Of a stretch of 64,000 nucleotides of DNA, positions 5,801 through 27,719 are shown in pieces. A program made the position numbers and the translations under genes. The stretch lies in assembly GCF_055900595.2 (NCBI RefSeq), contig NZ_CM148325.1; one strand, written 5' to 3'. Below the pieces are notes generated by a model, which saw only the letters and a list, made by a program, of their open reading frames with translations, was not told the DNA's origin and searched no databases. How positions within the stretch are numbered: position 1 is the first letter of the stretch; the number at the start of each line of letters is the position of its first letter.

Positions 5801-6913
5801 TTATTTTCCGCTCTTCACTTTGGTCCACGCGCGGGTGCGCACACGGTCGATTTTCGGATCCTGCACTTTCAGAGTGAACAGCTTCGCACGGACATCCGCA
5901 GGCGGGTAAATACCGGGGTTATCACGCACTTCCGCGCTTACCAGCGGCGTAGCTTCTTTGTTCGCGTTGGCATAGAACACATGGTCAGAGATATGCGCTA
6001 CGACATCCGGACGCAGCAGGTAATTCAGGAACTGATAAGCTTCGTCTTTATTTTTGGCATCCGCAGGCATGGCAAATACATCAAAGAATGCCATCGCCCC
6101 TTCTTTCGGAATCGAGAACGAGACATTCACGCCATTCTTTGCTTCCTTCGCGCGGTTTGACGCCTGCCAGACATCGCCCGCCCAGCCAATAGCGACGCAG
6201 ATATCGCCGTTTGCCAGGTCGTTAATGTATTGAGATGAATGGAAATAACGAATGTTCGGGCGCAGCTTTAACAGCAGATCGGTTGCCGGTCCGGTGTAAT
6301 CATCTGCTTTAGTGCTGTTGGGATCTTTACCGAGATAATTCAGCACGGTAGCAAACACTTCTTCCGGTGCATCAAGGAAAGAGACGCCGCAGCTTTTCAG
6401 TTTTTCCAGATTTTCAGGTTTGAGGATCAAGTCCCAGCTATCGACGGGCGCGTTTTCACCCAGTACAGCTTTGACTTTATCGACGTTATAGCCAATCCCG
6501 GTCGTCGCCCACATATAGGGCATAGCAAATTTATTATCCGGGTCATGTTTAGCGACCAGCTTCAGCAGTTCCGGGTCGAGATTCTTCCACTCCGGCAATT
6601 TGTTTTTATCCAGTGGCTGGAAAACTCCCGCTGTCAGCTGGCGTTCAAGAAAGCTTGCTGACGGCACCACCAGGTCAAACCCGGTGCTCCCCGCCATTAA
6701 TTTTCCTTCCAGTACTTCGTTGGAATCGAAAACATCGTAAACGACTTAAATACCGGTTTCTTTTTCAAAATTGGCCACCGTATCCGGGGCGATATAATCA
6801 GACCAGTTATAGATGTGGAGTGTTTTTTGTTCAGCCGCGAGCGTGCCGACAGAGACGGCCATCAGAGCACCCGCAACCAGACCCGATAGCCATTTTTTAT
6901 TTAAGGCGGTCAT
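5801..6913 (-). pseudogene. potF: putrescine-binding periplasmic protein PotF, interrupted by in-frame TAA stop at codon 56
   Basis: ATG at 6913 ([11 protein letters not shown]... signal peptide) and stop at 5801 span the 370-codon length expected for PotF, but plus-strand TTA at 6746..6748 is an in-frame TAA (...FEKETGI*VVYDVF...); ORF track splits the gene into 6746..7063 and 5801..6697 in the same frame. Confidence 0.85.
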
Positions 6914-6972
6914 ATCTCTTTCCTTCTGAAAGTTCGTTAACAAACGAACAAAAGTTGTCACACTGAAAGATA

Positions 6973-6988
6973 TGCAATATTCGTGCAT
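6973..6988 (-). promoter_or_regulatory. putative sigma54-like -24/-12 element upstream of potF
   Basis: minus-strand ATGCACGAATATTGCA resembles TGGCAC-N5-TTGCA but has TG instead of GG at -24; low confidence. Confidence 0.2.
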
Positions 6989-7263
6989 ATTTTTTATCGG
7001 CTCGGTGTAAGAAAAGAGAACTCTCTCCCGGCCAGCACTGCTCGCTATATAAAAGCATCGCAAGAATAACTTTAGCCAGGGTTTGAGACTATAGCTCGAT
7101 TTAAAAAACGGTATTTAACAAATTTTTATGCGTATTTGCTCTATGTGATAAAGCCAAATCGGCACAAGAGAAGTGAAATAATCTTTAAGAAGAGGTTAAA
7201 AACAGCAGATAATTTTGCAGCACGCAGTCACTGCGGCAGCGACTGCGTACTCTAAAGGAGTTA

Positions 7264-24024: not shown

Positions 24025-24034
24025 CTAATAATGA

Positions 24035-25363
24035 TTACTGCCAGCTAATCTGCGCCCTGCCGTTTTTCTTACTCTTATACAGCCGCTCATCCGCCAGCAT
24101 TTTCAAACGTTCAACGGTGGTACATTCATTTGAATGCGCTACACCGATACTGGTGCTCAAGTTAATACTCCCCACCTGGAAATGGACGATTTCTTTTAGA
24201 ATCGATAGCAACTCCTCCAGCGTTCCGCCAGTATAAATCACCGCAAATTCGTCACCGCCGAAGCGGTAGACTTTACCTTTATCTACCGGGATTTGTGATT
24301 TAAGGATTTTCACCACTTTCATCAACACTTCATCGCCCAGCAAATGACCGAAGGTGTCGTTAATGTTTTTGAATTTATCGACATCAAAAAGACACAGATA
24401 GCCCCCTTTTTCCGGCAGGGCTTTTAAATCTTCATCAAAGGATTTTCTGCCCATTGCTTTGGTCAGGTCGTCCAGAAACGCCGAGTTATACATACTGTAG
24501 AGTTTTTTGACATCGGCAGCCGAAAAGAAAAGCCCACCGTCCAGGACGCGTTCAAAATGGTTATTAATAATGGCTTCTTTCTCCACAATGCCACGATTAA
24601 TCACTCTGCGCACCAGATAAAGGCAGCTAGCACCCGATATCACTGCCACCAATGCAGCAAAGAAAATAATCAACATACATACCTGAAAATAAACGTCTTT
24701 TTTATACGAAAATACGTACAATCCGGTCGGCAAATAGGCGAAGTGCTCCATTGCTTCCGAAACGGTGAAGATGGCGTTTTTAGCATTATATTCATCACCG
24801 GTCACCGGTTTACCGTTCTTAAACAGAGAGAACATCAGGTTCTCGCTATCCATCGCCAGCGATTTTGACAGTAAAGAAAAACGCTCCAGACCAAGCAAAA
24901 ATATCAGACTGCGATTGTGAGTTACCGGATAGAGGTAATAGACGAAGGTTTTACCGTCAAAAGAGATAAACCCTGTATTTTTGACATGTCGATACTTAAC
25001 AACCTGCATAATATCTGCACAATAATTTTTCTCGAACTCCTTTACCTGAATACATTCGTCACTGGAAATCAGATAAGGACCGACATCGTACAAATAAGAG
25101 GGTGAAACCGAGTCGGCGTAAGCTGTGCGCAAGCCAACCAACAGCTGTTCCTCCGTGGGATTTAGCGTGTTGATGAGATCAATTGCCACGCTACGCCGAT
25201 ATTCAGCAATATTTGCCACCGCAAAAGCAGTATCAATAACGGACTGTTTCAGGCCATACACCCGTTCCTTTACCATTTGAGTGTAGATCCCGCAGGCAAC
25301 TGCTGAAATCATGATAAAAATCAGCAGACTGACTGTAAGTACGAACTTATTGATTCTGGACAT
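24035..25363 (-). CDS. dgcI: diguanylate cyclase DgcI (YliF)
   Basis: 442 aa; N-terminal TM plus periplasmic domain, C-terminal GGDEF (RFGGDEFAV). Confidence 0.92.
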
Positions 25364-25370
25364 ACGTAAA

Positions 25371-27719
25371 CTACTCTTTTACTAATTTTCCACTTTTATC
25401 CCAGGCGGAGAACGGCATGGGTTTCTGGTACAGATACCCCTGAGCCTGAACACATCCTAATTTGATTAATTCGCGCGCAACGTCTTCGCTCTCTACGCCT
25501 TCCGCAATCACCGGGATCCGGTTATAGCGTGCCAGATCGAAAATAATGCGCACAATTTTCCCCGCAGTACCGAAAATATCGCCGGTAAATTGCGAGTCCA
25601 CTTTTATACTGTCTGGATTAATTTCATAAAAACGTTTCAGGTTTGACAAACCGGTGCCAAAGTCATCAATCGATATCCGTACCCCTTGTTTACGCAGTTG
25701 TTCAATATTGAGATAAAAATGTTCATTAATTCGCTCGATCACAGTTTCAGTGATCTCAACACAGAGGCTGTTCGCCTTCAGGCCATTTTCTTTCATGATG
25801 GTGGTAAAACGCTCATGAAAGTGTGGTTCGTTTAACTGCCAGGGCGAAACATTAATATGCAGTAAGAAACCGTCCTTCAGCGACGCACGCTGACTAAAAT
25901 GTCTAAATTCACCCATTGCCGTTTTAATAATCTGATAACCCAGCGCATTGATAAACCCGATATCTTCAGCAATGGTAATGAACTTCAGCGGTGAAATGAT
26001 CCCCCGCTCCGCAGACACCCAACGGCACAACGCCTCCGCGCCCAGAATGGCGCGGGTGTTAATATCAACGATCGGTTGATAGACCAGGAATAGTTCGCCA
26101 ATTTCCATTGCATGGCGAATATTACGCGCAATCCAAATATTCTCTTCTATTTCGTTGAGCTTCGCGTCATCACAGAAAATAAACTCTGAGAACATATGGT
26201 CACGGATACTGGAAATCGCCAGTTTCAGTTTTTCTGCGTAACTCCAGGCGTTTTCTCCCTGCAAAGGTTCACAAATAGCAGACTTATGGATGCGCAGATT
26301 GCGGTAGCCAAAGCTGCTGTCAAAATCGTTTATCGTCGCTATCTTACGGGTAAACGTCTGGACATTTTCCCGGCACAGGAGTAAATAAAGATCGGCATTG
26401 AATGTCACGATATCGCAGCATTGTGCATATTTCTCGGCAATTCGCTGACACAGTTTTCTGACGATTTTATTACGCTCATCGACACCAAACACCGCTTCAA
26501 CGGCTTCCAGGCCACACAGTTTGATGATCCCCACAGCCAGATACTGATTATTGTTGGACTCAATAATCGCCATATTTTTAATAAAACCGCTTTCTTGATC
26601 GTAAGAGATCAGCGAGAGCAATTTATTCGAACGTTCAATTTCGGCATCTTTCATTTCCGCGATCGAATTTTTGATGCTGATAATCTCTTTCGCATCGCCT
26701 TCGCGAATTTTCAGAGCCTCGATTTGATCCGTTGAGTCGGGCAAAAATGCCAGCGTATTAACCAGCTCGGTCATTTCAGAAAATTGCCGACGGAACACAC
26801 GAGTGGTCATTAAATAAACCACCAGCAATACGATAATAATGAAAGCAAACGGCAGATAAAAAAGTTTATCTGATGCGTTCAATAAATTACCGCCAGGATA
26901 ATAAAAATAGATTTCGAATAATGCGTTGTTTGGCACCGCTGATGTTTTTTCGATATATTCAGTATCGACAGAATCAATAATATTATAATTGCCTTCGCTA
27001 TTATAAATAATCAGTTTTTCACGAGCGAGTTGATTCTTGGCAATGATCTCATGGCCTTATTTCAAAAATAGAACTTCATCATTAGCGCTGATTTGATCAA
27101 GATACTCGTTCAGATATCGCCAGTTTAAATCGACATGAATTTTATCCACCACTAACAAATCGTGATCTTTGCCGTTGATGCGTAGCGTAAAAGAGATACA
27201 TTTTTTACCCGGACGATCAAAGCAATTGTATGCCGGATTCCAGCTGTTGTTAGAGTCATCTGAAGCCACAGACCACGGTCGTTTCGATGGGTTAAAATCG
27301 GCAAAAATAACCCGCCCTGACTCGTCGACAAGCGGTCCATTTACTTGTTCCTGATGATAAACAGCGATTTTATCATTTGCCCTCCGTGAAAAGAGATAAT
27401 ATTTATTATCATCAAGTACCAGTCCCACCGAGTCTAAAAATGGCATCATTTCCATTTTAAGGATCACAGCGCGTTGAATCTCCTCTGTATTTTTTAATAA
27501 ATACAGTGAGTCCTTTAATGTCAGGGCCGAACGTTCAATATCTTTAAAGAAATAGCCAACGTTTTTCTGAATAAGTTCAAAGCGGCTATCGGCACGTTTT
27601 ACCGCGCGTTCCGATACCAGTTGATAGTTAATGATGAAAAAAAGGCCAATAAATGACAGTGCTGCCAATAAAAATAAAATTATCAGCCTTATCTTTATCT
27701 TTTCGTATAAACTCAGCAT
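25371..27719 (-). pseudogene. pdeI: c-di-GMP phosphodiesterase PdeI (YliE), interrupted by in-frame TAA stop at codon 221
   Basis: ATG at 27719 to stop at 25371 is 2349 nt, the full length expected for a 782-aa PdeI, but plus-strand TTA at 27057..27059 is an in-frame TAA (...EVLFLK*GHEIIAKNQ...); C-terminal part keeps TM2 and the EAL motif (LGAEALCRW). Confidence 0.85.

Follow-up and report, generated by a model that had tools for sequence, protein, structure and literature searches.

Escherichia coli has putrescine importers other than PotFGHI and about a dozen c-di-GMP phosphodiesterases other than PdeI. GGDEF/EAL genes of this species are reported to have been lost in a manner specific to strains and pathotypes (Povolotsky & Hengge, J Bacteriol 2016). 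The K-12 strain encodes 13 phosphodiesterases, and overexpression of pdeI acts like that of the others (PMC7553319). The effect of PdeI on c-di-GMP is disputed, the protein behaving as a phosphodiesterase in one study (PMC7553319) and found to raise c-di-GMP in another (PMC11651652). Its overexpression affects infection by phage N4, and it marks a surface-attached, persister-prone subpopulation of cells (PMC7553319, PMC11651652). Our literature searches yielded nothing specific on pseudogenisation of potF or pdeI within E. coli lineages.

Here we analysed a stretch of 64,000 nt from contig NZ_CM148325.1 (GCF_055900595.2), hereafter the window, to which all coordinates refer. It carries potF and pdeI alleles that are each interrupted by a premature TAA codon, and we consider it very probable that these are two independent, spontaneous and vertically inherited nonsense mutations that reached fixation along the stem of a natural Escherichia cryptic clade I clone. 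The two genes and their operon partners are arranged as follows:

2768..5706, minus strand: potG, potH and potI, downstream in the potF operon, intact, with their binding protein missing
5801..6913, minus strand: potF pseudogene; the product of the intact gene (370 aa) binds putrescine in the periplasm for the PotFGHI ABC importer
6746..6748, minus strand: premature TAA in potF, codon 56, AAA to TAA
24035..25363, minus strand: dgcI (yliF), 7 bp downstream of pdeI, intact
25371..27719, minus strand: pdeI (yliE) pseudogene; the intact gene encodes a membrane c-di-GMP phosphodiesterase with CHASE9 sensor and EAL domain (782 aa)
27057..27059, minus strand: premature TAA in pdeI, codon 221 (numbered from the annotated start at 27719), CAA to TAA

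Translation of the minus strand from 5801 to 6913 yields PotF with one internal stop at codon 56 (..KETGI*VVYD..), where the closest complete genome and K-12 have lysine (ATT TAA GTC versus ATT AAA GTC in the DNA), and translation of 25371–27797 on the same strand yields PdeI, again with one internal stop (..VLFLK*GHEII.., AAA TAA GGC versus AAA CAA GGC). Each stop is due to one substitution: plus-strand base 6748 is A where relatives have T, base 27059 is A where relatives have G, and three sister-clade genomes as well as an outgroup carry the wild-type base. On the coding strand, the changes are A to T in potF and C to T in pdeI and thus belong to distinct mutational classes. Both genes keep exactly the length that they have in K-12 (371 codons for potF and 783 for pdeI, stop included), and neither site lies in a homopolymer of the type prone to indel errors. 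A TAA codon followed by G, as found at both sites, is an efficient termination context.

The remainder of the window is intact. When the 59 annotated genes of the nearest genome were mapped, 57 were free of internal stops and gaps and potF and pdeI alone were broken. Translation and gene mapping hence bear out the original prediction of two single TAA substitutions with exact length conservation and with neither IS element nor indel, as well as its view that the window shows no pattern of IS- or indel-driven decay. We found no IS elements in the window and no insertions relative to its relatives; two IS200 copies are present in the latter and absent from the window. Its description as reference-like holds for gene order and intactness only: identity to MG1655 is 96.5% over positions 221–36349 and 92.8% over 36450–48804, and the window is thus not K-12-like. 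A tRNA scan found no tRNA gene, and hence no suppressor tRNA, in the window. The Rfam scan of the window returned only RybB, naRNA4 and ES036 (REP-derived), none of which bears on the stops.

The nearest complete genomes (E200086 and relatives), which are 99.96% identical to the window over 46 kb, are typed “Cryptic I” and ST485, and EC42405, which follows them in similarity, is also a strain of clade I (PMC10100065). This clustering by sequence identity places the host lineage in Escherichia cryptic clade I, as the sister of the ST485 OND:H45 group, whose isolates were recovered from African and Asian children, from a Korean dog and from a human in Japan. The ST485 sister clade has the wild-type base at either site and differs from the window by only ~15 SNPs in 46 kb. 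The mutations arose after the split from this close sister and are therefore young, in agreement with the original prediction that they were recent.

Searches with 61-base allele sequences centred on the stops gave no exact match among 5,426 complete RefSeq E. coli genomes, although 1,845 of these genomes (potF) and 1,241 (pdeI) lacked the 28-base seed, so that independent stops in divergent haplotypes are not excluded there. These searches first suggested a private or artefactual allele, an idea that was dropped when the look-up of exact proteins revealed hundreds of carriers. The truncated products were found on 174 (PotF residues 1–55) and 217 (PdeI residues 1–220) public contigs and the C-terminal open reading frames on 130 (PotF, 298 aa) and 199 (PdeI, 521 aa), with each of the four fragments present in NCBI, ENA and Logan. 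The longest carrier of all four is a contig of 5,491,225 bp, and the chromosome-scale carriers measure 5.31, 5.35 and 5.49 Mb. In ERZ25021421, a single contig bears the two lesions, and they also co-occur in the chromosome-scale assemblies GCA_964249055.1 and GCA_974490495.1, where the gene calls are 55 + 298 aa and 521 aa. In GCA_050190815.1, the potF TAA was seen directly and neither a PotF nor a PdeI protein was called, which we read as both genes having been handled as pseudogenes. In all, the potF TAA was observed directly in six assemblies besides the window, which have private SNPs, and pdeI is truncated in all four clone-mates that reach the locus (one shows the identical TAA, two have a 521-aa gene call, and the last has no protein call). 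Over 20,663 bp around pdeI, a SPAdes contig from Illumina reads (~38x coverage) matches the window at 100% identity. The alleles are thus common to independent isolates of one clone.

This clone has diversified since it acquired the stops. Clone-mates differ from the window by 0–4 SNPs per 16–21 kb, and two of the window's SNPs, at 7192 and 21205, are confined to a subclade; the latter causes the substitution G251V in yliI, and the window's V251 variant is present on 71 contigs. Because every clone-mate examined has the potF TAA and pdeI is truncated in each one that reaches its locus, whereas SNPs 7192 and 21205 are found only in the subclade, the stops are older than the diversification of the clone, and both alleles are basal to it. 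The SNP spectrum of the lineage is mixed (five transitions and two transversions). Some clone-mates have acquired further changes in the same region, namely a potH frameshift (T7 to T6, window position ~4084–4090) in one assembly (L004), potF T138I in a second (L008), a ybjL frameshift in a third (L017) and a 3-bp insertion in nfsA in the second and a fourth (L008 and L015). The secondary changes in potH and potF, which lie inside a dead pot operon, fit relaxed constraint.

Domain positions suggest that both stops remove essential protein parts. In intact PotF, Pfam places the SBP_bac_8/1/6 domains at residues ~44–334, and the stop at codon 56 of 370 leaves a 55-aa product with the signal peptide and almost none of the SBP domain. 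The K56* allele would hence deprive the PotFGHI putrescine importer of its periplasmic binding protein and probably leave it non-working; a restart product, if any, would lack the signal peptide. Intact PdeI has its CHASE9 domain at residues 35–150 and its EAL domain at 532–767, and the 220-aa product ends ahead of the entire EAL domain, so that Q221* is predicted to spare only the N-terminal portion, with its membrane segment and CHASE9 sensor, and to remove the catalytic domain. Conceivably, a 521-aa PdeI fragment that starts at a GTG and includes the EAL domain is expressed. The ~1.7 kb of untranslated pdeI mRNA upstream of dgcI may exert polarity, and expression of dgcI is probably lowered. 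Both functions are dispensable and backed up by other genes, and for this reason the lesions probably persisted as ordinary lineage-specific pseudogenes; their persistence would have been close to neutral or slightly beneficial.

Genes that are intact except for one clean substitution to TAA are also what a laboratory-evolved, mutagenised or engineered strain might carry, possibly together with an ochre suppressor, and this had been the favoured reading of the original prediction next to base-calling errors. We regard a laboratory origin as highly improbable, given that the alleles lie on 130–217 contigs from three repositories which differ among each other by SNPs, in a cryptic clade I background that is 3.5–7% divergent from K-12; a wild clone and not a laboratory lineage carries both. 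Furthermore, A to T and C to T together form no single mutagen signature and, being of different mutational classes, cannot both be explained by a GC to AT mutagen such as EMS. Both stops stand in the UAAG context of efficient termination, and nothing in the evidence calls for a suppressor. Errors of base calling or assembly have practically no chance of being the explanation, as identical alleles recur in independent assemblies from all three sources, including the Illumina contig and three chromosome-scale assemblies, and as the changes are substitutions outside indel-prone homopolymers. Lineage-wide reductive evolution, in which a host-restricted pathogen gathers many pseudogenes as Shigella does, would account for alleles common to all clone-mates and for the additional lesions nearby in potH, ybjL and nfsA, but it is improbable as well. 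Those further lesions are restricted to individual assemblies, with some perhaps being homopolymer errors of long reads; the clone's chromosomes are large (5.31–5.49 Mb), and the density of pseudogenes and IS elements in the window is not Shigella-like. Only 2 of the 59 window genes are broken. Shigella itself, which the E. coli genome set does not include, was considered as the source in view of the shortness of carrier contigs but was ruled out by the absence of IS elements from the 64 kb, chromosomes of 5.3–5.5 Mb and the cryptic clade I relatives.

The remaining alternative concerns the cause of fixation. When the clone was founded, selection and not drift alone might have driven the loss of putrescine uptake and of the pdeI-dgcI c-di-GMP module, for example through a change in biofilm formation, motility or phage susceptibility in a new host. 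In 46 kb, the short stem branch shows just four substitutions, two of them the stops, whereas 3.1–3.5% of random coding substitutions in potF and pdeI are expected to be nonsense. Under a neutral model, two nonsense changes among the four to five coding substitutions on the lineage branch have a probability of ~0.006–0.015, and this local excess could point to selection for loss. That both stops are TAA is not a remarkable coincidence, with 35–42% of the random nonsense changes being of this type. Independent disruptions of the two genes are also known from elsewhere: in a lineage that is only 96% identical (L009), potF has a +T frameshift at the same codon that gives the same 55-aa product, an IS1 copy interrupts pdeI in strains ZF31 and ZF34, and N-terminal PotF fragments of 54–92 aa are on record, some of the short ones being contig-end artefacts. 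In addition, the stop-bearing clone has been sampled more often (130–217 contigs) than the intact sister haplotype (55 contigs with intact PdeI), and PdeI has the links to phage N4 infection and to surface-attached, persister-prone cells named above. However, the window was chosen for its two stops, and the local excess is therefore post hoc. By extrapolation, the stem branch comprises ~600–800 SNPs genome-wide, of which, with 3.3% nonsense, ~8–24 nonsense mutations are expected, which makes it likely that two of them fall within 20 kb somewhere in the genome (we infer 0.2–2 expected pairs). Thus, the nonsense excess is unusual locally, above the neutral expectation for one window, and unremarkable across the whole genome. 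Likewise, recurrent disruption is to be expected of any non-essential gene among hundreds of thousands of assemblies. Taken together, we deem adaptive loss unlikely, albeit the most credible of the alternatives, and we are equally doubtful of the wider proposal that the two losses were selected together as a successful clone arose and that convergent inactivation has repeatedly struck potF in Escherichia.

Two spontaneous nonsense mutations inherited by a natural clone amount to ordinary natural gene loss, an event of an already known kind. The consequences lie mainly in annotation, where the potF and pdeI genes of this clone should be recorded as pseudogenes, and the two SNPs are handy diagnostic markers for the clone. 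More generally, clean and length-preserving stops in a conserved core need imply neither a laboratory strain nor bad base calls, and looking up the truncated products in public assemblies settles this question quickly. Should the adaptive reading be true, the case would be one more instance in which polyamine uptake and c-di-GMP turnover were lost, here as a lineage of cryptic clade I emerged.

Compared with known systems, the two alleles share with laboratory ochre and amber alleles and their supB/supC/supG-type suppressors in K-12 derivatives the clean in-frame stop (here TAA) and the exact conservation of length, but they reside in a non-laboratory background, are spread across a diversified wild clone and need no suppressor. 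As in the reductive evolution of Shigella and EIEC, niche-dispensable transport and signalling genes have been lost lineage-wide; unlike there, the clone shows neither IS expansion nor deletions in the window, retains a large chromosome and has 57 of the 59 window genes intact. The disruptions in L009, ZF31 and ZF34 inactivate the same genes through separate mutational events in separate lineages. The closest match is provided by the nonsense pseudogenes of natural clones, in which a one-base stop without involvement of mobile elements interrupts a non-essential, redundant gene clone-wide while the neighbouring genes are intact and the sister is wild type. From these, the present case differs in having two lesions, 20.3 kb apart and on the same short branch, and in its host, which is cryptic clade I and not E. 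coli sensu stricto.

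Both TAA codons lie exactly where the original prediction had placed them, as read codon by codon against relatives and K-12:

5801-6913, minus strand: potF, protein reading ..KETGI*VVYD..; K56* at 6746-6748 (ATT TAA GTC in the window, ATT AAA GTC in relatives and K-12)
25371-27719, minus strand: pdeI/yliE, protein reading ..VLFLK*GHEII..; Q221* at 27057-27059 (AAA TAA GGC in the window versus AAA CAA GGC)

The coding-strand changes belong to different classes, A->T in potF and C->T in pdeI. The base after each stop is G (UAAG), a context in which termination is efficient. Of the 59 genes annotated in the nearest complete genome, all mapped onto the window, 57 were free of internal stops and gaps; comparison with relatives revealed no insertion in the window, and no tRNA gene was found within it. 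Both genes keep their K-12 length. The original view of young point lesions rather than long-term decay holds.

The gene order (artJ, rlmC, ybjO, potIHGF, ybjN, rimK, nfsA ... mdfA ... dacC, gstB, yliI, bssR, rimO, dgcI, pdeI, gsiDCBA, iaaA, moeAB ... ompX ... glnHPQ ... fiu, ybiX, ybiI) is colinear with the Escherichia core genome; it runs opposite to the K-12 map, where the matching region lies at about 840-900 kb. At the nucleotide level the window is unlike the reference: identity to MG1655 is 96.5% for 221-36349 and 92.8% for 36450-48804 (fsa ... mntR), a segment noticeably more K-12-divergent than the rest. Only 8 of the 5,426 complete RefSeq E. coli genomes reach at least 99% identity around potF, namely Z0117EC0005 (dog, Korea), AST85 (human, Japan) and six GEMS isolates (100117, 100248, E200086, E400634, E500002 and E600003), and 15-18 SNPs in 46 kb separate them from the window. 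The announcement paper types five of the six GEMS isolates (100117, E200086, E400634, E500002 and E600003) as "Cryptic" or "Cryptic I", OND:H45, ST485 (PMC13064198). EC42405, which ranks next in closeness, belongs to cryptic clade I (PMC10100065). By these relationships, the source of the window is a strain of cryptic clade I and a sister of ST485.

Neither 61-base sequence centred on a stop has an exact match in complete RefSeq genomes (5,426 E. coli), and the eight nearest relatives carry the wild-type base at each site. This absence initially left room for a private mutation or an error, a reading countered by exact look-ups of the truncated products.

Contigs carrying each truncated product (exact look-up, NCBI/ENA/Logan assemblies)
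PotF residues 1-55: 174 contigs
PotF 298-aa C-terminal ORF: 130 contigs
PdeI residues 1-220: 217 contigs
PdeI 521-aa C-terminal ORF: 199 contigs

The longest carrier of all four is the same 5,491,225-bp contig. In ERZ25021421, a single Illumina contig holds both lesions; the 20,663 bp compared around pdeI match the window at 100%, and the 16.7 kb around potF contain one SNP and one indel. The potF TAA also occurs in GCA_965259665.1 and GCA_965258375.1 and in three chromosome-scale contigs (GCA_964249055.1, 5.35 Mb; GCA_974490495.1, 5.49 Mb; GCA_050190815.1, 5.31 Mb); the pdeI gene call is the 521-aa fragment only in the first two of these three, and GCA_050190815.1 has no called protein for either gene. 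The carriers represent distinct isolates, with a few SNPs per 16-21 kb separating them from the window and from one another. Base-calling error, one of the origins originally suggested, is thus excluded by recurrence of the alleles in separate assemblies, and so is a private laboratory mutation.

The age of the stops also speaks against the suggested laboratory-evolved or engineered origin, and the suppressor-strain reading finds no support either. With EC42405 as outgroup, 7 derived SNPs in the 46 kb compared fall on the window's branch and 8 on the ST485 branch.

Derived SNPs on the window's branch
38: intergenic; confined to the window or its nearest kin
4687: potG, synonymous; stem branch
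6748: potF stop; stem branch
7192: intergenic; found only in a subclade
21205: yliI G251V; found only in a subclade (YliI variant on 71 contigs)
27059: pdeI stop; stem branch
38055: ybiY, synonymous; branch placement not assigned

The mutational spectrum of the branch is mixed. SNP 4687 belongs to the stem because a basal clone member shares it, the potF stop because every clone member examined carries it, and the pdeI stop because it is present in every member whose locus reaches pdeI; the clone therefore diversified internally only after both stops had arisen. Diversity inside the clone amounts to roughly 1e-4 per site, about half of the sister-clade distance, which at usual E. coli substitution rates takes, roughly, at least decades to centuries. 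This rough dating indicates natural circulation for at least that long, not a recent laboratory event.

Two TAA codons are unremarkable, since TAA accounts for 35-42% of stop-creating changes in the window's own coding sequence, and the chance that two given stops are both TAA is about 0.12-0.18. Finding two stops in 4-5 coding substitutions is locally unusual (p about 0.006-0.015, to be read knowing that the window was chosen for its stops), since a stop arises in 3.1-3.5% of all single-base changes, and this would favour selection for loss. Against it, the density of the branch, if extended to 5.3-5.5 Mb, would amount to several hundred SNPs on the stem, with about 8-24 nonsense changes; two of these falling within 20 kb of each other at some place in the genome would be unsurprising (0.2-2 pairs expected). 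Given this expectation and the choice of window, we retain selection as a minority possibility, and regard both lesions as ordinary, naturally arisen, clone-wide nonsense pseudogenes of a cryptic clade I lineage.

The PotFGHI putrescine importer has PotF as its periplasmic binding protein; other putrescine importers exist. With the stop at residue 56, essentially the entire SBP fold is missing, a loss that would leave PotFGHI dead in the clone, and a restart at Met-73 would yield a product without signal peptide. Clone-mate ERZ25021421 has a T7->T6 deletion in potH (4084-4090) that splits it into 163-aa and 155-aa ORFs, and clone-mate L008 carries potF T138I beyond the stop; either change fits relaxed constraint on a dead pot operon. 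In PdeI (CHASE9 at residues 35-150, EAL at 532-767), the stop at 221 cuts off the EAL domain, and may exert polarity on dgcI, which starts 7 bp past pdeI. K-12 has 13 phosphodiesterases, and overexpressed pdeI, like others, blocks phage N4 (PMC7553319), whereas a single-cell study found that PdeI increases c-di-GMP and promotes persisters (PMC11651652); with these reports in disagreement, the phenotypic direction of pdeI loss is uncertain.

Segment 48851-55083 (opgE, ompX, rhtA, dps, glnHPQ) holds about 110 SNPs relative to the ST485 clade in roughly 6 kb between nearly identical flanks, a pattern suggesting that one of the two lineages imported it by recombination. Two IS200 copies of relatives are absent from the window: an IS200/IS605 tnpA at about 45994-46000 (ldtB/ybiR intergenic) in Z0117EC0005, E200086 and AST85, and another at about 49792-49802 (ompX/opgE intergenic) in Z0117EC0005, the sole genome examined there. 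A 1-bp T difference lies at 45997. A REP/BIME-type intergenic repeat has two roughly 150-bp copies (883-1032 and, inverted, 43060-43209; 85% identical), and Rfam matches comprise naRNA4 and ES036, both REP-derived, and the sRNA RybB (further repeat/Rfam coordinates: 36331-36408, 925-967, 12643-12721). In GCA_025468435.1, closely related to the window (1 SNP in 14.3 kb), a P2/186-like prophage (14389-21233 of its locus; integrase, CI repressor, Fil, GpA) lies just past rcdA, in the place of ybjL. Single-base indels split ybjL in clone-mate L017 (11128) and in an ST485-clade genome (11631) and may be long-read homopolymer errors; nfsA encodes 241 aa through a 3-bp insertion (about 8820-8826) in clone-mates L008 and L015.

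Both genes have also been inactivated independently elsewhere. In an unrelated, 96% identical E. coli lineage (GCA_053182365.1, locus positions 3140-3175; window 6746-6751), a +T insertion turns ATT AAA into ATT TAA A, which hits the same potF codon, shifts the frame and yields the identical 55-aa product; this lesion is independent of the clone's stop. Further short PotF fragments are on record, some of them contig-end artefacts. In ZF34 and ZF31 (NZ_CP047461.1 and NZ_CP047455.1; window 26500-27600), an IS1A insertion separates the CHASE9 and EAL parts of pdeI, another independent inactivation. The two stops are events of an already known type.
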